A stretch of DNA of 64,000 nucleotides from Thermofilaceae archaeon (GCA_038727095.1 JAVYWK010000005.1:1-64000), one strand, 5' to 3'. Counted from the stretch's first letter, positions 15,803-26,982 are shown. Notes: a model not told the origin generated them from the sequence alone. Numbers and translations are program-made.

Positions 15803-16513
15803 TTAGCGTTGAGGAGCCTCCTCCCCGGCGAGCGGTAGAATCTTCTCCCGCACGAAGCTGAGAGCGTCGGCTGGATCCAAGCGGGAGAAGAAGGTGACGA
15901 TGCAGTTCCTCGTAACACCAACCACGAGCCCTTCGTCAGCCTCGAAAACGACGTACCACACGCTCCCCAGCCTCAGGTACTCGCTGTAGAGGCCCGAGCT
16001 GGCCAGCTGGCTCCCGTACAGCGTTAGCTTCCCCACGTCTGGGAGCCTCACGTCCGTGAAGACAACCACCTTAACCGACTGGGGCCTGCCCTCGTAGAGC
16101 CCCCTGAACACCTTCTCGGGAATCAGAGCTTCGAGTACGACGCCCCTCCTCCTACCGGCGGCGATCGCGGCCGAGATCCTCGACGCCACTCTGTTGGCTC
16201 TCGCCTTCCTCGCTGCCACAGTGAGGAAGAGCTTGCCCTTCACCTCGAAGAACCAGAACTCCGTCACCACCGACACGGGGACGCGGAGCTCCTCCCCCCT
16301 GTACCTCAAGCTCGCCAGAAAGCTCTCCTCGAAAACGCCCTTTAACCCTCCCTCCGCGGGCTGAAGATCGGCGACCCTAAACCCCACTTCAACCTCCCTC
16401 CCCTCCAGCTCGACGACCTCAGCGACACCGTAGCCCCTAAGCTTCGCGGCTACCTCGTCGAGCGTCAAGGGCTCTGCCACAACGAAGGACTTGAACGTTA
16501 GAGGCACGCCCAC
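15803..16513 (-). CDS. Hypothetical protein
   Basis: 236-aa ORF with typical codon usage, divergent from lhr. Confidence 0.7.
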   Translation of the reverse strand: MGVPLTFKSFVVAEPLTLDEVAAKLRGYGVAEVVELEGREVEVGFRVADLQPAEGGLKGVFEESFLASLRYRGEELRVPVSVVTEFWFFEVKGKLFLTVAARKARANRVASRISAAIAAGRRRGVVLEALIPEKVFRGLYEGRPQSVKVVVFTDVRLPDVGKLTLYGSQLASSGLYSEYLRLGSVWYVVFEADEGLVVGVTRNCIVTFFSRLDPADALSFVREKILPLAGEEAPQR

Positions 16514-16597
16514 CCGTCGGGGTCATCGTATTATGCTTTGCGCGATCGACGCCCCGGGCGCTTGTGAGGGGTGGTGTTAAAAGGGGCCATCACACTG

Positions 16598-19447
16598 ATG
16601 AGTGAAGTGGGCAGTGTGCTGGAGCTGCTACACCCGATGATCAGGAGGTTGTGGGTGGAGAAAGGCTTCGGTGAACCCACTCCTCCGCAGAGGGAAGCCA
16701 TCCCGCTGGTGCTCTCCGGCGAGAATGTGCTCATCGTGGCTCCGACGGGTAGCGGTAAGACGGAGGCAGCCCTGCTGCCGATCCTTTCGAGGATGCTGGA
16801 GGAGGAGGGGCCGGGGGTCAGGCTGCTCTACATCACTCCCCTGAGAACCCTCAACAGGGACATCCTGGCGAGAGTGGAGTGGTGGGCGCTGAAGCTGGGG
16901 TTCAGGGTGGGGGTGAGGCACGGGGATACGACCCCGGCCGAGCGGAGGGTTCAGTCGCTGACGCCTCCCGACATCCTGATCACGACGCCGGAGTCGCTCC
17001 AGCTCCTCCTCGTTGGTAGGAGGTTGAGGAACCACTTGGCCAACGTTAGGTGGGTGATCGTCGACGAGGTGCACGAGGTCGCGGACAGCAAGAGGGGTGT
17101 TCAGCTGAGCCTCCTGATGGAGCGCGTCAAAAGGGTGGCAGGTAGACTGCAAGTGATTGGGCTTTCAGCCAGCGTCGGCAACCCGGAGGAAGTGGCTAGG
17201 CTGCTCGTCGGCGCCCACGGCTCTTGCAGGGTTGTCGTTGTTCCGGCCCACAAGAGGGTTAGGGTGAGTGTCGAGTGGCCCCACCCGGGTGAGGGTGACG
17301 CGGAGCTCGCCGATAGGATCCTCGCCGCACCAGATGTGGCGGCCCGGCTGAGGTTCGTGCGCGAGCTGGTCGAGTCGAGACGCTCTACGCTGATCTTCAC
17401 GAACACGCGGCCCACAGCCGAGCTGCTCGCGAGCAGGTTCAAGCTCTGGGACGAGAGGATCCCGATCTACGTCCACCACGGCAGCCTCTCGAGAGCTGAG
17501 AGGGTTCGGGTGGAGGAGATGCTGAGGAGGGGTGAGGTGAAGGGCGTCGTGTGCACGTCGTCGATGGAGCTGGGGATCGACATAGGCCACGTGGACCTGG
17601 TGGTGCAGTACAACTCGCCGCGGGAGGTTCGCAGGCTGCTGCAGAGGGTGGGTAGGGCCGGCCACAGCCTGGATCGGGTGAGCGAGGGGGTGGTGGTAGT
17701 GGGCAACAGCGACGACGCCCTCGAGAGCATCGTGCTGAAGAGGAGGATGGAGCAGGGGTTTATCGAGCCCTCAGAGATCCCGAGGAAGCCGTACGACGTT
17801 CTTGCACACGAGCTGGTCGGCCTAGCGATGTCAGAGCCCGTCACGCTGGAGGAGGCCTACCAGCTTGTGAGGGGGGCTGAACCCTACAGGGATCTGGAGA
17901 GGGAGGAGCTGGAGCTGGTTGCGGAGTTCCTCAGGAGCATCGGTTTGATCAGAGTCTACGGCGACCGTTTGAGGCCGGCGGGAAGGCGGTGCTACGACTA
18001 CTTCTACGGCGCTCTCACCACGATACCCGAGGTGGAGCAGTACGTCGTCGTTGAAAGGTCCACGGGCGAGCCGATCGGCGTGCTGGACGACTACTTCGTC
18101 GCCGAGTACTGCGAGATCGGTGCTCGCTTCATCATGGCTGGGAGGCCGTGGGAGGTGGTTGCGCTCACCGAGGAGGTGGTGTACGTCGAGCCGGTCGAGG
18201 ACTTCGAGAGCGCGGTGCCGAGCTGGGTGGGGGAGGAGATCCCCGTCCCCCACGAAGTCGCTCTGGAGGTGGGTAGGATCCGGGGGTTAGCGGCCGAGGA
18301 GGCGGAGAGGGGTGTTCCGCTCGAGGTCTTGGCGCAGAAGCTCGCTGAGAGCTACGGGGTTGACCGCTCGCTGTTCGAGCGCGCTCTGGCACCGGTCTAC
18401 GAGATGGTGCGCCTGGGGCTGCCGGTGCCCAGCGACCGGTTGATCGTTGTGGAAGAGGCCGGGGAGGGGGTGATGGTCGTCCACGCCCACTACGGCAACC
18501 GAGTGAACCGGGCCTTGGGCAAGTACCTCGCCTACAGGCTGGCTCGGAGGCTCGGGCTACCCGCTTACTCGGCGGAGAAGCCCTACAGGATCGTCCTCCG
18601 GTGCGAGAACGTTACAGCGGAGGAGGTGGTGGAGATCCTCCGGGAAACCGACGCGGAGATCTTCCTCCGGTACCTGAGGGCGGCAGTCGAGGAGAGCAGG
18701 GCTTTCAGGTGGAGATTGCAGCAGGTTGCGAGGAGGATGGGCGTTCTGGCTCCCGGCGCGAGGCTCACAAGGGGGGATCTGGAGAGGCTGGTGGGCGCGC
18801 TCAAGGGGACTCCGGCCTACGAGGAGGCGATGAAGGAGGTGCTGCAGAGGGACATGGACGTCGATAGGGCCCTCGCGGTCGTGGCCGCGGTGGGGAGCGG
18901 GGAGATCCGCGTTGTAGCAGTTGGGGGGCCGAGCCCGCTGACGCTCGAGGCTGAGCGGAGCCTGCGAGAGGGGCTGGAGCCTGCGATGCCGGAGAAGAGG
19001 GAGCTCATCTCCTACGCGCTCTTCAAGGTGAAGGTGCTGCAATCCTTCGCCTCCTTCTACTGCACCGAGTGCGGCAGCATCTTTGAACTCCCGATCTCCG
19101 AGCTGGGCGAGGAGGTAGTGTGCCCAAACTGCGGCTCCGGCAGGCTGGCCTTCGACACTGTTCCCGAGGAGGAGATGGCCGCTAGAGTTGAGAGGTGCGC
19201 GAGAAAGGGCGGCTGCAGGAGGCTGACCCTCAGCGCCTCGCTCTTCGAGAGGTACGGAGCAGCGGCAGTTCTAGCCAGGGCGGCGGGGCTCAGCTTCCGG
19301 GAAGTGAAGGAGGTGCTGGCCGGTTTCCACGGCGGGCGTGAACAGCTGCTCAAGCTCCTCTGGGCCAAGCATAGGGAAAAGGTGAGGTCCATGCTCGCAC
19401 GAGCGGCACAGGGTGCTGGCCTCAGGGGCCCGCAGCGACGCCGCTGA
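16598..19447 (+). CDS. lhr: Lhr-family DEAH-box ATP-dependent helicase with C-terminal zinc ribbon
   Basis: PTPPQ, APTGSGKT, DEVH, GLSAS, HHGSLS, ELGIDIG, QRVGRAGH, PSWVGE; CTEC..CPNC. Confidence 0.92.
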   Translation: MSEVGSVLELLHPMIRRLWVEKGFGEPTPPQREAIPLVLSGENVLIVAPTGSGKTEAALLPILSRMLEEEGPGVRLLYITPLRTLNRDILARVEWWALKLGFRVGVRHGDTTPAERRVQSLTPPDILITTPESLQLLLVGRRLRNHLANVRWVIVDEVHEVADSKRGVQLSLLMERVKRVAGRLQVIGLSASVGNPEEVARLLVGAHGSCRVVVVPAHKRVRVSVEWPHPGEGDAELADRILAAPDVAARLRFVRELVESRRSTLIFTNTRPTAELLASRFKLWDERIPIYVHHGSLSRAERVRVEEMLRRGEVKGVVCTSSMELGIDIGHVDLVVQYNSPREVRRLLQRVGRAGHSLDRVSEGVVVVGNSDDALESIVLKRRMEQGFIEPSEIPRKPYDVLAHELVGLAMSEPVTLEEAYQLVRGAEPYRDLEREELELVAEFLRSIGLIRVYGDRLRPAGRRCYDYFYGALTTIPEVEQYVVVERSTGEPIGVLDDYFVAEYCEIGARFIMAGRPWEVVALTEEVVYVEPVEDFESAVPSWVGEEIPVPHEVALEVGRIRGLAAEEAERGVPLEVLAQKLAESYGVDRSLFERALAPVYEMVRLGLPVPSDRLIVVEEAGEGVMVVHAHYGNRVNRALGKYLAYRLARRLGLPAYSAEKPYRIVLRCENVTAEEVVEILRETDAEIFLRYLRAAVEESRAFRWRLQQVARRMGVLAPGARLTRGDLERLVGALKGTPAYEEAMKEVLQRDMDVDRALAVVAAVGSGEIRVVAVGGPSPLTLEAERSLREGLEPAMPEKRELISYALFKVKVLQSFASFYCTECGSIFELPISELGEEVVCPNCGSGRLAFDTVPEEEMAARVERCARKGGCRRLTLSASLFERYGAAAVLARAAGLSFREVKEVLAGFHGGREQLLKLLWAKHREKVRSMLARAAQGAGLRGPQRRR

Positions 19448-19973
19448 AGCCGGCTAGCTTATCCAAGTCCACCTCGACACGGGCCCTCCAACCGATAGAT
19501 ACGGTGTCACCCTCCCCCTCCTCCAGGTAGCCGAGGCGTATGAGCCTCTCGAAGGTGTAGGTGAGCCGGGGCCCCTTAAACTTGGACTTCAGGATGCTCA
19601 GCAGCTCGCTGCGCGGCGCGCTCCCTCCCCTTGCTACGAGGTAGAGGAGGGAGGAGGAGAGCACGGCTAGATCATCGATCCTCCAGCCGCTCGTCTTGGC
19701 CTCCTCGATGCTCGGGGGCTCCTTCAGGACGACTAGGAAGAGAGCCTTCCTGAGGTCCCCCTCAAACTTCAGCTTCCTCCCCTCCTCGTCCACTGCGACC
19801 GCCTCGAGGCCCAGCACCTCGAGGATCGAGTTGAGGGCCTTAACGACCTCCACGTAGTCTTCGCCCAATGCCCTAGCCAGCTCCCACCCTCTAACCCCCG
19901 GCCTAGCCCCGCTCCTGTAGAGGAGGAGCCTGGCTGCACGCTTGAGCTTCGCTGAGGGGACTCTAGCGGGCAT
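19422..19973 (-). CDS. Kite (tandem winged-helix; ScpB/Nse1/Nse3-like) subunit of the SMC-like complex
   Basis: Two wHTH-like halves; C-terminal LIRLGYLE..IGWRARVE resembles the GPRA..E wing of Nse1/Nse3-MAGE; overlaps the kleisin gene. Confidence 0.65.
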   Translation of the reverse strand: MPARVPSAKLKRAARLLLYRSGARPGVRGWELARALGEDYVEVVKALNSILEVLGLEAVAVDEEGRKLKFEGDLRKALFLVVLKEPPSIEEAKTSGWRIDDLAVLSSSLLYLVARGGSAPRSELLSILKSKFKGPRLTYTFERLIRLGYLEEGEGDTVSIGWRARVEVDLDKLAGFSGVAAGP

Positions 19974-20712
19974 CCTCCACCACCCGCTCTAGCGGTATCG
20001 CCAGGGACGAAGCTTCCCCGCCGCCGCTCCTCGTGACGTAGAACTCGTCGGCTAGGGGGTCGTAGACCACAGAGAACTCCCCGCTGCTGGCGAGGAGCGA
20101 GAGAGCGTACGCGTTCAAGTAAGTCTCGTAGCTGCTCCCGCCCCGAACGGCCTCCGCGTAGCTCACCGCTTCCTCAACCTCCAGCAGCCGGTTCAGCCTC
20201 CCCCTCACCCTTTCAACCACCTTCTCTAGCTCAACCTGGGAGAGGATTCCCAGCTCAGCCGCAAGCTCGCGCGTCGCAACCAGCGTCTGCTCCTCCCCAC
20301 CCTCGAAGGCTGCCCTCGGCTTCCTACCGCCCATGTACTCGACGGCCCTCAGGATGTCGGTGAACGTGACCTGCTCCAGCTCGACAATCGGCCTCCACGC
20401 GCCGAGGAGTTGGAGGGCCAGCTCCCTCTCCCCCAGCGCGTGCACCTTCAGCGCGGCCACGAGGCGGCCCAAAGCCACGGCTGAGGCCTCGCTGGCCAGC
20501 CACTCCTCCTGCCTTCTCACGACCTCGGCCAGCCTGTAGATCAGCTCCGCGTCCAGTGGCAGCTCCTCCACCTTGAGCTTCGGTAGGAGTGAAGCCAGCT
20601 CGTCGAGCAGCTCCTTTACCCTAACCCTGAAGGGGTCAGGTGAGGCTCTCAGGGTTTCAACGATCTCCTCCAGGATTTCCCTTAACCTACCCTCAGCTGA
20701 CACGTCCCCCAC
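19963..20712 (-). CDS. Kleisin (ScpA/Nse4-like)
   Basis: N-terminal DPFRVRV..LLDEL..DAELIYRLAEVV (compare ScpA DPWDIDI); C-terminal VSYAEAV..YALSLLASSGEF..EFYV wHTH; overlaps the SMC stop. Confidence 0.65.
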   Translation of the reverse strand: MGDVSAEGRLREILEEIVETLRASPDPFRVRVKELLDELASLLPKLKVEELPLDAELIYRLAEVVRRQEEWLASEASAVALGRLVAALKVHALGERELALQLLGAWRPIVELEQVTFTDILRAVEYMGGRKPRAAFEGGEEQTLVATRELAAELGILSQVELEKVVERVRGRLNRLLEVEEAVSYAEAVRGGSSYETYLNAYALSLLASSGEFSVVYDPLADEFYVTRSGGGEASSLAIPLERVVEDAR

Positions 20713-22429
20713 CCCTGCTCAGCGAGACGAGCGTCCTTCCCCGGACCTTCTGTATGAGGAGCGTGTGGGCGTTCTCGGGCAGCTTAGTGAGGGGGCCCGG
20801 TGTGATCACGACGTACTGGACGCCCGGGCTCGCCTCAGCGAGCTCGAAAACTATGTTTAGCACAGCATCCCTGTTGCGCGGGTCCATATGCACGTCGAAC
20901 TCGTCCACGGCTCTGAAGGGGGATTTAACGTGGTTCTGGAGGGCGAGGAAGAAGCAGACGACTGCGGCGGTCCTCTCACCCCCGCTCAGGGAGTAGGGGT
21001 TGAGCGGTGCGGGTGCGGCACCGCCGTAACCGACGAGGATCTCGAGGCCCGCGCTCTCAACGTCCCCGCTCTCCGCCAACCTGACGCTGCCGCTGGCCCC
21101 CAACCTGGCCAGCATTGCGGAGAACAGCTTGTCGACGTCCTCCACAACCGCGGACACCTTCTCCCTCCAGAGGCTGATCCGCTTCTCCAGCTCCTCCTCC
21201 AACCTCCTCTTGTTCTCCTCCAGCTCCACAGCCCTCTTCTCCAGCTCTCGGTACTCTTCGAGGAGCTTCCCGTAGGCCTCCTCAACCTCCGCCGGTATCT
21301 CGCCGATGGCCGCGAGGGAGAGCTCCACCGACCGGATCTCCTCCTGTATCTCCACAACGCTCCTCACCGATTCCACCCTCTCGCCCTCCTCGAGCGCCTT
21401 CTCCTCGAGCGCCCTAACCTTCTCCGCAGCCCTGCGGCGGCGGGCCTCCAACTCCTCCCGCTCAGCGATCAGAAGCCTACGCTCGAAGGCTTTCACGCGG
21501 GCCGACGCGACCACTTCGACCAGCCCCTCCCAGACGCTGCGCAGCATCGCCAGACCCTCGGCAAGGCCCAGTGCGCCGCTGGTGATCTGCCGCTCAATTG
21601 AGCCCAGCTCAGCCCTCAGCTCCCCCTCCCTCGAGCCTAGCACCCCCAGCGCCTCCTCCACCCCCTTCAGCTCCAGCGTAACCCTGCTGAGCTCCTCCTC
21701 AACCGCCCTCAGGTCGGCCTCCGCGTCCCGCACTCTGGCCCAGGCGAGCTCCCTACGCAGCAGCTTGAGGCTCTCCTCGAGCGCCCTCCTCCTCCTGTAC
21801 CTCTCGTAAACCTCGCTCCAGTACTTGAGAGCCTCCCGGGCTCTAGCGAGCGCGCTTTTAGCCTCCTCCGCGCTCTTCGCGCCTTCAGCTAGCATCCTCT
21901 TCGCCGCCAGTACCCTCTCCCTGTACCCCGCCAGGCCCACGGCTTCCTCGAGCAGCCTGAGCCTCTCCTGGGGCGAGAGGAAGGCGAACTCCTCCACCAC
22001 GCCCTGGTGCATGATGATCAGCGCGTTGTCGGGGTCTAGGCCCAGCCTCGATAGGTACCTCTTGACCTCAGCCTTCGTGACAACCCTCCCGTTCACTTCG
22101 TGCCAGTACTGGCCGTCGATCCTCAGGTACCGCGTGAAGAACACCTCGTCGCTCCGGAACCAGGGGAGGGGGCGGCGCCCATCCACGGGGCGATTGTCGA
22201 TGACAACCGTCACTCGGGCTGCCTCCTCGCCGCGCCTAATCAGGTCGCTCAACCTGCGCCCCCTCTCCGTGTACGTCTGACCGAGCGCAACGCTGATGCC
22301 GAGGAGGAGGCTGCTCTTACCCGAACCGTTGGGCCCCGTGACTATGTTGATGCCCGGCGCTAGGGGGACCCTAGCGTACTTGTAGCTCATGAAGTTCTCC
22401 AGCACAACTTCCTTGATTAGCGCGGGCAC
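20693..22429 (-). CDS. Short SMC-family ATPase, SMC5/6-like heads, no evident hinge
   Basis: LENFMSY, Walker A GPNGSGKS, Q-loop MHQG, signature LSGGER, Walker B/D-loop PFRAVDEFDVHMD, QYVVITP; coiled coil between the heads. Confidence 0.9.
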   Translation of the reverse strand: MPALIKEVVLENFMSYKYARVPLAPGINIVTGPNGSGKSSLLLGISVALGQTYTERGRRLSDLIRRGEEAARVTVVIDNRPVDGRRPLPWFRSDEVFFTRYLRIDGQYWHEVNGRVVTKAEVKRYLSRLGLDPDNALIIMHQGVVEEFAFLSPQERLRLLEEAVGLAGYRERVLAAKRMLAEGAKSAEEAKSALARAREALKYWSEVYERYRRRRALEESLKLLRRELAWARVRDAEADLRAVEEELSRVTLELKGVEEALGVLGSREGELRAELGSIERQITSGALGLAEGLAMLRSVWEGLVEVVASARVKAFERRLLIAEREELEARRRRAAEKVRALEEKALEEGERVESVRSVVEIQEEIRSVELSLAAIGEIPAEVEEAYGKLLEEYRELEKRAVELEENKRRLEEELEKRISLWREKVSAVVEDVDKLFSAMLARLGASGSVRLAESGDVESAGLEILVGYGGAAPAPLNPYSLSGGERTAAVVCFFLALQNHVKSPFRAVDEFDVHMDPRNRDAVLNIVFELAEASPGVQYVVITPGPLTKLPENAHTLLIQKVRGRTLVSLSRGGGRVS

Positions 22430-22467
22430 CTCGTTGGTTGGGGAACCGCCGGCTATAACGCTATTCC

Positions 22468-23493
22468 CTAGAAGAACGACTCAAGCGTGCTCTGGCGGGC
22501 TCTCGCCCAGGCCTTCTCCAGCCTGGCGATCACGAGCTCGGCTCTATCGTGCGAGAAGCTGTTCTCCTCGACCAGGAACCTGTACAGCTCCTCGCTCTGG
22601 GGCTCGGCGGAGACGATCTCGTAGTCCTCCCTCACGGGAGGGTTGAGGAAGAGCTCAACGATCTCGCGGTAGTTGGCTGGCAGTAGCTCCCTGATCCTCG
22701 AGGGCAGCCGATCGAGGCTCCCGTACAGCTTGATGAGCTTGTACGCCCTCTTCGGCCCAATCCCCTTCACACCCCTGTTGTAGTCGGTCCCCGAGAGCAC
22801 GGCTACCTCGACCAACTGCCTGCGCGTCAGCTGGAGGGAGCCGAGAAGCCTGTCGAGCTCGACCAGCTCGGGCTCCAGCTTCCTCGCCGCCATCTTGCTG
22901 GGAAGCCACTCGAAACCCGTCAGCGTCACGTACCTCACGAGCCGGGGGGCGCCGTACAGCAGCGAGTCCCAATCCTGGCTGGCCACCGCCCAAGCCTCCC
23001 CCCTCGAGACGATGAGCGCGGCCTGAGCCTCAGCGTCGTGGGGAGCGTCGACGATGGGGAAGCCTATGAGCTTGAGCAGCTTCCTGCTGCTCCCGAGGAT
23101 CCACTCATCCACGCTCGCCGACACCACGGCCTTGGAGAAGGCCTTCTCGTACTCGCCCGCTTCGATCAGCCTCCTGTACTCCTCCAGCGCCCTCTCCCTC
23201 AGCTCCCTCCTCCTCGCGATCTCCGCCCGCTTGAGGGGGTGCGGGGGGCCGTCGAAGACGAAAATGAACTTGCAGTTGTGCTCGAAGGCGAGCCTGGAGA
23301 AGCGGGTCGCCAAGCCTACAAGGTGCGAAGTGACTTGGCCCCTGCTGTTCCTCAACGGCTCGCCCCTCGTATCCCTGACCAGTGCGAGGAACTGGTAGAT
23401 AGCGTTCAGCGCGTCGACGGCCAGCACTTTACCCTCCAAGCCCTTCAGCCCGATCCTCTCCGGCTTAGTTAGGGGGGTGAGTTTCGAGCCCAT
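22468..23493 (-). CDS. fen: Flap endonuclease 1
   Basis: VDALNAIYQFL, TSHL, VFDG, DAEAQAA, SQDWD, GTDYN.GVKGIGPK; C-terminal PIP box QSTLESFF. Confidence 0.92.
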   Translation of the reverse strand: MGSKLTPLTKPERIGLKGLEGKVLAVDALNAIYQFLALVRDTRGEPLRNSRGQVTSHLVGLATRFSRLAFEHNCKFIFVFDGPPHPLKRAEIARRRELRERALEEYRRLIEAGEYEKAFSKAVVSASVDEWILGSSRKLLKLIGFPIVDAPHDAEAQAALIVSRGEAWAVASQDWDSLLYGAPRLVRYVTLTGFEWLPSKMAARKLEPELVELDRLLGSLQLTRRQLVEVAVLSGTDYNRGVKGIGPKRAYKLIKLYGSLDRLPSRIRELLPANYREIVELFLNPPVREDYEIVSAEPQSEELYRFLVEENSFSHDRAELVIARLEKAWARARQSTLESFF

Positions 23494-24753: not shown

Positions 24754-24969
24754 GTGAGGGTTAAGGTCACCAGGAACTACCAAGTCACCATACCGGTGGA
24801 GGTGAGAGAGGCTTTGGGGATTAGGGAGGGGGACTACGTGGAGTTCGAGCTGCAGGATGGCGTAGCCCTGCTGAAGCCTGTGAGGAGGAAGTGGTCGACG
24901 ATCAAGCTCGGTAGTGCGCTGAGCGTCGAGGAGATCGAGGAGATCGCCGATAGAGCGTTCTCGCCCTAG
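24754..24969 (+). CDS. vapB: AbrB/MazE-type antitoxin
   Basis: VKVTRNYQVTIPVEVREALGIREGDYV; upstream of a PIN toxin. Confidence 0.88.
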   Translation: MRVKVTRNYQVTIPVEVREALGIREGDYVEFELQDGVALLKPVRRKWSTIKLGSALSVEEIEEIADRAFSP

Positions 24970-24972
24970 GGC

Positions 24973-25362
24973 ATGCTCGTCCTTGACACCAACGTGCTCG
25001 TCTACGCGAGCGTGGAGGACAGCGAGTTCCACGAGGAGAGCTTGAAGCTGCTCAACGAGAGGGACTCTGTGATACCGCAGATCGTGGTTTACGAGTACAT
25101 CAGGGTTATTGCGGAGCTTACTCGGGACCCCCTGTTTGTCTTAACGAAGATCTGGGAGCTGGCGGAGTACAACGTTCTATGCGAGCCGCTTCACGTCGTT
25201 CAGAGGGGTGTGCAGCTCTGGACGGAGCGCAACGCCCCCATCAGGGAGCTGAACGATTGTGTTATCCTCGCTTTAGCCCTCACGCTCAACGCTGAGCTCG
25301 CAACGTACGACAGGAAGCTTAGGCGGCTCGCTGAAGAGCTGGGAGTGCCAACGCGCCCCTAG
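24973..25362 (+). CDS. vapC: PIN-domain toxin
   Basis: VLDTNVL, E in VVYEY, NDCVI, LATYDRKL acidic tetrad. Confidence 0.88.
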   Translation: MLVLDTNVLVYASVEDSEFHEESLKLLNERDSVIPQIVVYEYIRVIAELTRDPLFVLTKIWELAEYNVLCEPLHVVQRGVQLWTERNAPIRELNDCVILALALTLNAELATYDRKLRRLAEELGVPTRP

Positions 25363-26708: not shown

Positions 26709-26982
26709 GTGAGGACTAAAGTTCTAGAAACTACCAAGTTACGATATTATTGGGGATTAAAGAGGCTTTGGGCATTAGGGGAGGGCAAATACTAGAGTTT
26801 GAAGTGCAGAGGGACGACACCCCGCTGAAGCATGTGGAGAAGAAAGAGTCGACGATCAAGCTGGTCCAGTAACTTGACGTTAGAGAAATCAAGAGGTCAC
26901 GGAACAGGTACTCCCTTTAAGCATGTTCGTTCTCGACACTAACGTGTTCATTTACGCTAGCGTGGAGGATAGCGAGTCCCAT
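26709..26982 (+). pseudogene. Decayed copy of the vapBC pair
   Basis: Collinear with 24754-25030 (AACTACCAAGT, GAGGCTTTGGG, GTCGACGATCAAGCT, MFVLDTNVFIYASVEDSE) but with indels, stops and a truncated toxin. Confidence 0.8.

Follow-up and report, generated by a model that had tools for sequence, protein, structure and literature searches.

Within the window (the whole 64,000-nucleotide stretch of hot-spring archaeal DNA that was analysed), three overlapping minus-strand genes encode an SMC-type ATPase, a putative kleisin, and a putative kite (Table 1). Their strand and lengths in the ORF listing are identical to those given in the original prediction. The kleisin gene overlaps the start of the kite gene by 11 nt, and a GGAGG lies just 5' of the kite ATG. 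The SMC stop codon overlaps the listed kleisin start by 20 nt; with the second GTG (20703) as the kleisin start, the overlap shrinks to 11 nt, and the N-termini of the homologues point to this GTG as probably the true start, which would give a protein of 246 aa. Upstream of the SMC gene, the TTATAG in the spacer is a possible archaeal TATA box, and the operon transcript might be leaderless. The SMC-kleisin-kite order, on the same strand, recurs in 30 of 30 loci of Thermoproteota and, judged by gene arrangement, the three genes are one operon. Both gene junctions are spanned by contigs of one RNA library, although such contigs can prove neither transcription nor a single transcript. Positions 21376-21697 and 22503-22985 are not covered by the contigs of this library, and no meaning is attached to this.

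Table 1. Genes and sequence features of the SMC-kleisin-kite locus (window coordinates).
Feature	Position	Strand	Details	Basis
SMC5/6-related SMC ATPase gene	20693..22429	-	578 aa, GTG start	ORF listing, Pfam and PDB matches
SMC N-terminal head half	21920..22429	-	residues 1-~170; Walker A GPNGSGKS 32-39, Q-loop Q142	invariant columns, PDB N-head matches
Predicted ascending arm helix	21569..21919	-	residues ~171-287	low Pro+Gly, heptads (sequence only)
Arm tip, ...ITSGALGLA...	21542..21568	-	residues ~288-296	short loop at hinge/hook site
Predicted descending arm helix	21140..21541	-	residues ~297-430; conserved breaks ~341-356, 371-380	Pro+Gly, alignment
SMC C-terminal head half	20696..21139	-	residues ~431-578; LSGGER, Walker B/D-loop FRAVDEFDVHMD, QYVVITP	carries SMC5/6 signal
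Putative Nse4-like kleisin gene	19963..20712	-	249 aa as listed, GTG start	orthologue profiles
Putative kite gene, tandem winged helix, Nse1/Nse3-like	19422..19973	-	183 aa, ATG start	predicted fold
Spacer, FEN1 stop to SMC start	22430..22467	-	38 nt, TTATAG ~25 nt 5' of GTG	sequence only

The head encoded by the first gene is of the ABC type and complete: Walker A, Q-loop, signature motif, Walker B, and D-loop are all there. The motifs on which the original prediction was based (LENFMSY, LSGGER, SPFRAVDEFDVHMD, and QYVVITP, which occupies the H-loop position in the C-terminal head) were all found, as was GPNGSGKS, and the ATPase residues K38, Q142, S482-E485, D509, and E510 are invariant in the SMC family alignment of 36 members. 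The protein matches Pfam SMC_N (1.4e-30) and NCBIfam SMC_prok_A (195.7 bits), and its best PDB matches over the whole length are Smc5 (5.8e-36) and SMC6 (4.5e-30). The N-terminal head alone is non-discriminating against the PDB (Pyrococcus Smc 57.7 bits, Smc2 56.9, Smc5 55.5), whereas the C-terminal head alone ranks human SMC6 (61 bits) and yeast Smc5 (58) above Pyrococcus Smc (42) and cohesin or condensin (at most 31). The QYxxITP ending is common to the window's SMC, yeast Smc5, and human SMC6 in alignments; it was counted in 8/9 rows of eukaryotic SMC5/6 (the ninth is unmatched by the pattern) and in 38/48 short archaeal rows (one has SP and nine are unmatched), versus 0/5 in canonical SMC. 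In the Rad50 encoded by this genome, TH stands at the position of the TP.

A search of a library of 1.84 billion representatives gave 2592 matches at E<=1e-3. Beyond the archaeal family, the next named matches were eukaryotic SMC5 and SMC6, and no named canonical SMC was present among those looked up in the best 150. In a maximum-likelihood tree of the heads, the archaeal short and long forms lie with eukaryotic SMC5/6 on one side of a branch (95/92), with canonical SMC, Rad50, and arcadin-4 on the other, in a tree of 71 rows and 335 columns whose rows were chosen as the best C-head matches and whose bootstrap is not fully settled. The short forms in it are 48 representatives of 540-700 aa with Walker A within the first 80 residues. 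The contrast set comprises only 3 canonical SMCs: SMC1-4, bacterial SMC, and MukB were left out, as were the canonical SMCs L043 and L048 (signature unmatched by the pattern) and L045 (insertion after Walker A), and also P0354, P0355, and P0362, which are without an N-terminal Walker A. The C-head ranking, the library, and the tree thus agree with the earlier claim that the heads are SMC5/6-like; they do not group with Rad50, which the tree puts outside, or with RecN, which scores far lower. These sequence comparisons support the view that the SMC belongs to an archaeal lineage related to eukaryotic SMC5/6.

Could the protein be of the ASRP (coalescin ClsN, Sph) or arcadin-4 type instead of an SMC proper? 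Its length is similar (the ASRP model has 593 positions), and it matches both the ASRP model (5.5e-21) and the Rkd4 model (1.3e-12). We know of no kleisin or kite partners reported for ASRPs. The ASRP score, at 74.8 bits, is far under both the cut-off of 300 and the 195.7 bits of SMC_prok_A, and the window's SMC is without the CxxC hook that most ASRPs have according to the sections of PMC9389158 consulted. Like it, Rad50, ASRP, and arcadin-4 have heads of the SMC superfamily and coiled-coil arms that lack an SMC hinge, but they dimerise via a CxxC zinc hook and are outside the clade. Moreover, a separate arcadin-4-like gene lies beside crenactin elsewhere in the genome. An assignment to either type is very improbable.

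The most unusual part of the SMC lies between the heads, where the original prediction had seen only some 270 coiled-coil-like residues and neither a globular hinge nor a CxxC hook. Residues 171-440 are indeed nearly free of Pro and Gly and have heptad periodicity, except at the tip (~281-296) and at two breaks (~341-350 and 371-380). Walker A and the signature motif are 450 residues apart; in five canonical SMCs of the phylum the distance is 1046-1058, and eukaryotic SMC5/6 has 895-928. The SMC_prok_A profile aligned at positions 2-284 and 919-1127 only, with 285-918 unmatched. Pfam SMC_hinge did not match the window's SMC at E<=1; since this model also fails to detect SMC5/6-type hinges, length is the decisive argument for the missing hinge. 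A CxxC was sought in the best 120 homologues, the window's SMC included, and found in 0/120.

In the SMC family alignment, the Pro+Gly content of the ascending arm is at most 0.11 per 10-residue block (at most 0.07 to residue 280), while the two breaks in the descending arm reach 0.13 and 0.18 and have a conserved G349, R356, and 'G..P'; they may be a joint. All length variation is at the arm tip, where longer homologues add 30-90 columns. Each strand of the arm has ~120 residues (about 117 and 134), and the tip loop ~10, so that the arms, predicted to be under half the usual length, come to about one third of those of eukaryotic Smc5/6. The window's SMC lacks both the central hinge and the long arm of an SMC, in which each strand has roughly 300-350 residues and spans ~49 nm. 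Against the ~49 nm given for canonical Smc in the part of PMC5526789 consulted, the short arms would measure roughly 17-18 nm.

An obvious concern is that the short SMC is an artefact and that a normal SMC of 1000-1200 aa has been truncated, misassembled, or left as a decaying pseudogene, as the existence of a few distant relatives of 928-1047 aa in the same clade might suggest. The chances of this are negligible. The best 120 homologues come from many independent assemblies, and their median length is 576 aa, with a range of 368-648 in which the shortest are only partial matches. In 301 Thermoproteota genomes, the open frames that hold strong SMC matches are mostly of 580-700 aa. Moreover, all the ATPase motifs are invariant, and one DNA contig from another run spans this region gap-free. 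Local truncation or misassembly is refuted as far as sequence data reach: the close orthologues are all short, and the relatives of ~1000 aa are confined to a few distant lineages. Some Bathyarchaeia of the same clade have 900-residue arms whose apex bears a CxxC like that of Rad50, and in the head tree, these long CxxC forms are nested inside the short forms (99/94). In a 982-aa relative, P0293, the middle matches the Pfam hinge below threshold (E 0.0032, 18.3 bits versus a cut-off of 22.5) and has no sequence match in the PDB; another, P0308, has no Pfam hinge match, so 'hinge-like' is a tentative label. A profile search of genome contigs with the SMC alignment was dominated by the generic Walker A pattern and returned mostly bacterial SMCs.

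The products of the other two genes are more divergent and, as single sequences, neither has a match in Pfam, NCBIfam, PADLOC, or the PDB; nor did the profiles A1 and A2 for the kleisin and kite match the PDB. For the second gene, a resemblance to ScpA at both ends had been predicted, and the homology in fact runs the whole length. An hhalign comparison with ScpA-like kleisins, taken from canonical operons where they lie beside the SMC, gave 94.5% (E 7.6e-8, 185 columns). The alignment begins at the DPF/PW motif near the N-terminus and extends to the C-terminus, as expected of a kleisin with its N-terminal helical domain and C-terminal winged helix. Among named proteins, Nse4 and EID3 are the closest relatives: Pfam Nse4_C matches 19/31 syntenic orthologues (best 5.5e-9), the window's own kleisin not among them, and the orthologue profile matches EID3 (1.2e-3) and Nse4 (1.3e-3) in the PDB ahead of ScpA (0.5). 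At E<=1e-10, Pfam ScpA was found in none of 61 genomes of the phylum, not even in those with a canonical SMC, because this threshold is too strict for such divergent kleisins. The orthologue profiles support the identification of the second gene as an Nse4-like kleisin.

The third gene had been read as a tandem winged-helix kite of the Nse1/Nse3-MAGE type ending in IGWRARVE; this motif was found, and the predicted fold agrees. In the AF2 model (pLDDT 87.1, pTM 0.76), DSSP gives H-H-H-E-E twice, corresponding to two tandem winged-helix domains. The top four Foldseek matches are Nse1/Nse3-MAGE chains (5hvq_C 2.5e-5, 7dg2_C 1.1e-4, and 7dg2_A 4.9e-4; TMq 0.61-0.67), followed by ScpB, MukE, and JetB. 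The sequence support is weak, with Pfam SMC_Nse1 matching 3/43 and MAGE 2/43 of the kite homologues, and the kite profile has no similarity to the phylum's ScpB-like proteins (hhalign 1.1%). The 183-aa protein is without cysteine and thus has no RING. The model supports its assignment as an Nse1/Nse3-like kite.

The kite profile was found in 153/301 sampled Thermoproteota genomes, almost always in a single copy. It is near-universal in the families f15 (24/25), f17 (11/11), f22 (18/18), and f13 (16/17) and was not found in f4 (0/20) or f8 (0/43). The window's genome has one SMC match and one kite match, and a single gene for each would imply homodimers rather than heterodimers. In this genome, which is 92% complete, there is no match to SMC_hinge or ScpA and no SMC above the family cut-off, making this the sole SMC-kleisin complex found there.

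This distribution bears on the idea that the operon serves in SMC-type anti-plasmid or anti-virus defence, sensing and restraining foreign circular DNA as Wadjet JetABCD or Lamassu would. Human SMC5/6 restrains episomal viral DNA, and the short arms are reminiscent of Lamassu-type SMC-like proteins. The best PADLOC matches are mad3 (1.7e-34) and LmuB (6.3e-21), and the kite model weakly matches JetB and MukE (E 3-7e-3). These PADLOC matches, however, are to generic SMC_N regions and are well under the SMC_prok_A score, and the kleisin and the kite have none. MukBEF and Wadjet JetABC likewise combine SMC, kleisin, and kite but are of bacterial type; the JetC models match weakly (6.5e-10), and there is no JetD-like nuclease gene here. 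Within ~1.5 kb of 27 loci, no nuclease or effector was found, nor any gene common across lineages. A single-copy system near-universal within whole families is, moreover, not patchy. A defence role is accordingly improbable.

Another possibility is a RecN- or Rad50-like repair tether, in which dimers with short arms would be linked tip to tip and keep broken or stalled DNA ends together, with the kleisin and kite only regulating the ATPase. Eukaryotic SMC5/6 is active in repair, and the arm length and overall size are within the range of RecN. In the window's genus, FEN1 is immediately upstream of the operon, which is convergent with a gene for an Lhr-type helicase, and the related lineage with a CxxC at the arm apex would also fit such a tether. 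The FEN1 and Lhr genes, however, adjoin the operon at only 2/30 loci, in this genus alone, and a conserved repair neighbourhood was rejected. The genome already holds Rad50, with Mre11 and HerA, as separate genes elsewhere, and the RecN match is 5.9e-4 versus 9.8e-58 for SMC. The conserved kleisin and kite argue instead for a compartment-forming SMC complex, and a tether is an unlikely explanation.

The operon, then, quite probably encodes an SMC-kleisin-kite ATPase complex of the SMC5/6-related archaeal lineage in a short form that is family-wide. Each SMC would have its ABC head in full but, of the arm, just the portion next to the head, with a short loop in place of the hinge or zinc hook. 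By analogy with the solved Smc-ScpAB and Smc5/6 complexes, two heads would sandwich two ATP, the kleisin would bind one SMC at the neck through its N-domain and the other at the cap through its C-terminal winged helix, and two copies of the single kite would bind the middle of the kleisin. DNA would then be clamped atop the engaged heads, inside the head-kleisin-kite compartment, and ATP hydrolysis would open the clamp. The tips of the two short arms might touch as well and enclose a second compartment, and the complex may, as in the original prediction, dimerise without a hinge. We infer the stoichiometry, subunit contacts, DNA clamping, and cellular role from this analogy. The complex would appear to be a housekeeping factor in chromosome maintenance and not a mobile accessory.

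How does this complex compare with known systems? Yoshinaga & Inagaki 2021 (PMC8665677) described an archaeal SMC5/6-related SMC whose operon also encodes a kleisin like Nse4 and a kite like Nse1/3, and the preprint of van Hooff et al. (bioRxiv 10.1101/2024.01.07.573240) described the same family and three-gene operon. The original prediction was thus right that archaeal SMC5/6 relatives had been reported phylogenomically, but the three-gene operon, too, had already been published. The present system is the same in its heads, its partners, and its gene order; it occurs mostly in TACK archaea, and some of the genomes with it also hold a canonical SMC. The main texts of both papers give phylogeny and gene order only, with schemes that assume hinge-dimerised SMCs. 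Neither short arms nor a missing hinge is mentioned in the main-text sections consulted, although supplements may list lengths. To that extent, the gene family and operon were known phylogenomically, and the short, hinge-less form is unmentioned.

Eukaryotic Smc5/6 shares with the complex the C-head motifs SPFR.(V/L)DE...MD and Q(Y/F)xx(I/L)TP, the C-terminal domain of the kleisin, and the kite fold. However, it is a heterodimer with two kites (Nse1, which has a RING, and Nse3/MAGE), whereas one SMC gene and one kite gene are present here, the arms are hinge-less, and the operon contains no gene for Nse2, Nse5, or Nse6. Smc-ScpAB has the same operon logic of SMC, kleisin, and kite and a homologous kleisin, at least as represented by the ScpA-like proteins of the phylum; it differs in that the canonical SMCs of the phylum have 1170-1310 aa, a Pfam hinge, and heads in another clade, and in its kite. 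An ABC head whose antiparallel coiled coil has no hinge at its end is also found in RecN, LmuB, and a marine actinobacterial clade of hinge-less SMCs, for which the sections of PMC12153180 consulted report no kleisin or kite partners; these proteins are bacterial and not SMC5/6-related, and RecN and LmuB score far lower here.

A further reading, possible though doubtful when its parts are taken jointly, is that the complex is a natural minimal SMC machine without apex dimerisation. Its sole DNA compartment would be made up of two heads, one kleisin, and two kites; the machine would be the sole and sufficient SMC-kleisin complex in many Thermoproteota lineages; and the apex would be an exchangeable module in the SMC5/6 lineage, taking the form of a bare loop in most archaea, a CxxC hook in some Bathyarchaeia, and a hinge-like structure in rare forms and eukaryotes. 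Current models of DNA entrapment and loop extrusion give the hinge and long arms a central place. If the minimal-machine reading were true, both would be dispensable for the core activity of the SMC5/6 type, and the eukaryotic hinge might have been kept from, or acquired again after, an ancestor that differed from most archaeal relatives alive today. Since the nearest prokaryotic relatives of SMC5/6 are mostly hinge-less, and others have a hook or a hinge-like middle, scenarios with a hinge-dimerised ancestor need checking. Moreover, the searches found no SMC with a hinge in this genome or in entire families of the phylum, where the complex may be the main SMC-type chromosome factor. Widespread, conserved, and thermostable, it offers a natural test case for the head-kleisin-kite module alone, and its small size (~1.8 x 100 kDa; roughly 2 x 65 + 28 + 2 x 20 kDa) makes crystallography or cryo-EM feasible.

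The ORF listing of the window contains the three overlapping minus-strand genes of the original prediction, at the same coordinates and lengths (see the table). The kite ATG overlaps the kleisin stop by 11 nt, with GGAGG immediately upstream; the kleisin start overlaps the SMC stop by 20 nt, or by 11 nt if a second GTG at 20703 is the start, which is where the homologues begin and where the ESM Atlas entry also starts. A 38-nt spacer, containing TTATAG, lies between the SMC start and the stop of the upstream flap endonuclease gene. The window is contig 5 of an assembly of 1.86 Mb (52 contigs, 92% complete). The closest homologues are named by their sources as Thermofilaceae or Thermofilales archaeon, and the same stretch is present in hot-spring metagenomes from several studies. 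Contigs from one metatranscriptome library, with 95-99% identity to the window, extend over most of the operon and run across its two gene junctions (19900-20668 and 20639-20976), which is proof neither of transcription nor of a single transcript.

Coordinates of the operon and of the other features described (window positions, or positions in loci, L0xx, fetched from the window's own genome or the phylum sample)
Feature	Location	Strand	Remark
SMC ORF	20693..22429	-	578 aa
Kleisin ORF	19963..20712	-	249 aa
Kite ORF	19422..19973	-	183 aa
FEN1 gene	22468-23493	-	400 bits, above cut-off
Lhr-type DEXH helicase gene	16571-19447	+	26-nt overlap with kite 3' end
236-aa protein	15803-16513	-	no known family
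Homologues of the 236-aa protein	L015:743-1462, L019:3397-4092, L026:713-1459, L033:3276-3965		
Topoisomerase IB genes	L016:3347-4702; also L017, L018, L027, L028, L031, L035, L037, L040		eukaryote-type
Small ORF	24754-24969	+	
Following ORF	24973-25362	+	
Rad50 homologue	L042:3665-6184 (own genome, contig C30)	+	
Arcadin-4-like protein	L041:5103-7511 (own genome, contig C1)	-	265 bits
Crenactin	L041:8394-9686 (own genome, contig C1)	-	561 bits

The SMC is predicted from its sequence to have short arms and no hinge. Its Walker A and signature motif lie 450 residues apart. Across 48 short representatives this distance is 429-563 residues, as against 895-928 in eukaryotic SMC5/6; five canonical SMCs of the phylum have 1046-1058. 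Pfam finds no SMC hinge in it at E<=1, and its alignment to the SMC_prok_A model is confined to model positions 2-284 and 919-1127. An alignment of 36 family members showed that residues 171-440 are nearly without Pro or Gly and have heptad periodicity, the exceptions being a short tip (around 288-296), to which the length differences among family members are entirely confined, and a pair of conserved breaks in the descending helix (around 341-356 and 371-380), which may act as a joint. None of the best 120 of its 1982 homologues (E<=1e-10) has a CxxC zinc-hook motif. The coiled-coil-like middle region with neither globular hinge nor CxxC hook, first noticed in the one protein, thus holds up. 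Another explanation would be a local deletion or misassembly of a hinge-bearing SMC of some 1000 aa; this is ruled out, as far as sequence data go, by the lengths of the same 120 homologues (median 576 aa, range 368-648, the shortest covering the query only in part) and of the open frames of strong matches in 301 genomes of the phylum, which are mostly 580-700 aa (range 290-929, the shortest being at contig ends and some frames extending upstream of the start).

Of these 301 genomes, 119 have a Pfam hinge, without exception in canonical-type frames, mostly of 1170-1310 aa. In families f15, f17 and f16, the short SMC occurs in 24/25, 11/11 and 7/8 genomes, respectively, as against 0/25, 0/11 and 0/8 for the hinge-bearing SMC; families f13, f18 and f23 have both kinds, f8 has the canonical SMC only (43/43), and f4 has neither (0/20 and 0/20). 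The genomes sampled from the window's genus have the short SMC and lack the hinge-bearing one, and in the window's own genome (92% complete), a hinge, ScpA and an SMC above the family cut-off were all not found. The other SMC-superfamily genes of this genome are that of a Rad50, adjoining Mre11 and HerA, and that of an arcadin-4-like protein, adjoining crenactin. In place of a central CxxC, the coiled coil of the Rad50 homologue has at its middle a roughly 40-residue hydrophobic stretch; the arcadin-4-like protein has a central CPVC, and its gene, two genes from that of crenactin, belongs to an arcade-type cytoskeleton cluster. In several f13 genomes, the canonical SMC gene lies 10-13 kb from the short one on the same contig. 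One hinge-bearing SMC of this family (L045, G039:C17; 1305 aa) has extra sequence, which may be an intein, immediately following its Walker A lysine (GSGK then C...).

As to the heads, the protein matches Pfam SMC_N (1.4e-30), and its best NCBIfam model is the archaeal SMC_prok_A, at 195.7 bits, far below the cut-off of 729; lower scores were obtained for ASRP (74.8), Rad50 models (about 70 or less), arcadin-4 (46.7) and RecN (18.9 bits). Against the PDB, the whole protein matched yeast Smc5 (5.8e-36) and human SMC6 (4.5e-30) best, followed by Pyrococcus Smc (1.4e-27) and the cohesin and condensin SMCs, with Rad50 only at about 1e-5. The SMC5/6 signal resides in the C-terminal head half, which scored 61 bits with SMC6, 58 with Smc5, 46 with human SMC5, 42 with Pyrococcus Smc and at most 31 with the rest; the N-terminal half scored 55-58 bits alike with Pyrococcus Smc, Smc2 and Smc5. 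SPFR.(V/L)DE(F/I)...MD and Q(Y/F)xx(I/L)TP are common to the SMC, Smc5 and SMC6 in the PDB alignments. A phmmer search with the C-terminal half over 1.84 billion representatives gave 2592 matches at E<=1e-3 (158 at 1e-10, 40 at 1e-30); the archaeal family fills roughly the first 95 places, after which, at E around 1e-12, come proteins named SMC5 (five, from fungi and insects) and SMC6 (a bird), together with protist sequences.

A maximum likelihood tree (71 rows, 335 columns, LG+C20, ultrafast bootstrap/SH-aLRT) was made from the N- and C-head segments joined end to end, the outgroup consisting of Rad50 and arcadin-4 from the window's genome. In this tree, which has few canonical SMCs, leaves out SMC1-4, bacterial SMC and MukB, has rows chosen as the query's best matches and has a bootstrap not quite settled, the phylum's three canonical SMCs group together (97/98), and all archaeal SMC5/6-like rows group with eukaryotic SMC5/6 (95/92), the eukaryotic rows being a single clade (100/94) within an unresolved archaeal radiation. 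The SMC5/6-like motifs of the original prediction agree with both the PDB ranking and the tree, where Rad50 and arcadin-4 fall outside, and RecN scores far lower.

Relatives with other arm apices were found among the library proteins. Three of 1016-1047 aa (P0233, P0243 and P0269, two of them named Bathyarchaeota) combine SMC5/6-like heads and arms of roughly 900 residues with a central, Rad50-like CxxC, and branch in the tree from among the short, hinge-less forms (99/94). In two others of the same clade, P0293 (982 aa) and P0308 (928 aa), some 165 residues in the middle are non-coiled, and P0293 has a Pfam SMC_hinge match below threshold (E 0.0032); P0308 is sister to the eukaryotic SMC5/6 clade, without full support (93/98). 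These forms suggest that the apex changed several times in the SMC5/6-like lineage, in whichever direction.

The second protein has, as a single sequence, no match in Pfam, NCBIfam, PADLOC or the PDB, and a sequence search gave 21 homologues. A gene matching the kleisin profile follows the SMC gene in 30/30 phylum loci. Pfam Nse4_C is present in 19 of 31 aligned syntenic kleisins (best 5.5e-9), and the profile of this alignment matches human EID3 (1.2e-3; an Nse4 paralogue, from 9lwi, an SMC5/6 structure) and yeast Nse4 (1.3e-3), with Pyrococcus ScpA at 0.5 in the same C-terminal region. In five of six loci fetched from the phylum, the canonical SMC gene is followed by genes for a kleisin (about 230 aa) and a ScpB-like protein. 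When these five kleisins were compared by hhalign with the 31, the match (94.5% probability, E 7.6e-8, 185 columns) took in everything between the N-terminal DPF/PW motif and the C-terminus. Because of the hhalign, Nse4_C and PDB matches, the protein is assigned as a kleisin along its whole length, with Nse4 as its nearest named relatives, which bears out the ScpA-like motifs proposed for its two ends. As a lead only, the Atlas gives a eukaryotic Nse4 cluster at 0.89 besides archaeal clusters, in one of which 18% of members have Nse4_C.

The kite has 76 homologues, without any Pfam domain in the homologue search; scanned singly, 43 gave SMC_Nse1 in 3 (best 1.2e-3), MAGE in 2 and MarR_2 in 11. 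The AF2 model (pLDDT 87.1, pTM 0.76) is a tandem pair of winged-helix units. The four PDB matches that Foldseek gave it at E<=1e-3 are without exception chains of Nse1 or of Nse3/MAGE-G1 (5hvq, 7dg2; TMq 0.61-0.67 for three of them, 0.40 for 5hvq_D), as the proposed Nse1/Nse3-MAGE-like layout implied. ScpB, MukE, JetB and yeast Nse1/3 rank lower, and hhalign found no similarity to the ScpB-like proteins of the phylum (1.1%). The kite profile occurs in 153/301 sampled genomes, nearly always in single copy, and the families that have it are those with the short SMC.

The locus is a member of a published gene family. Yoshinaga and Inagaki (2021; PMC8665677) defined 80 'SMC5/6-related' archaeal SMCs, 66 from TACK archaea, keeping entries of 500-1500 aa and removing coiled coils before analysis. 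Van Hooff et al. (bioRxiv 10.1101/2024.01.07.573240, May 2025 version) described archaeal operons in which an SMC5/6-related SMC is encoded together with an Nse4-related kleisin and an Nse1/3-like kite, and proposed an ancient duplication of the whole complex; their main text mentions hinge, length and coiled coil only in the general introduction and methods. The supplements of both papers may list lengths. In the available text of the literature, the only hinge-less SMCs found were those of a marine actinobacterial clade (PMC12153180), and no functional work on an archaeal SMC5/6-like complex was found. Two points were not found in print: the short arms and missing hinge throughout the family (lengths in the published supplements apart), and the standing of this complex as the only SMC-kleisin complex found in the window's genome and in several whole families. 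The original observation is confirmed and its reading largely right; we infer, rather than observe, the function of the complex and its mode of dimerisation.

Around the operon, the FEN1 gene lies upstream on the same strand, ending 38 nt before the SMC start, and the Lhr-type helicase gene is convergent with the operon; this neighbourhood was seen only in the window's genus (2/30 loci). Homologues of the 236-aa protein (E 1e-40 to 1e-53) adjoin the short SMC gene, divergently, in four loci of other lineages, and its Atlas matches are hypothetical archaeal clusters only; it could be a lineage-specific partner. A topoisomerase IB gene adjoins the operon at nine loci from the phylum sample (in L016, Pfam Topoisom_I 8.7e-65 and Topoisom_I_N 9.9e-62), an adjacency that hints at a connection with DNA topology. 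Further along the window, a small ORF is followed by a second one (MLVLDTNVLVYA...); from their translations, we take the first to be AbrB/SpoVT-like and the second PIN-like, a pair resembling a VapBC-type toxin-antitoxin, and another, presumably PIN-like, frame starts at 26923.
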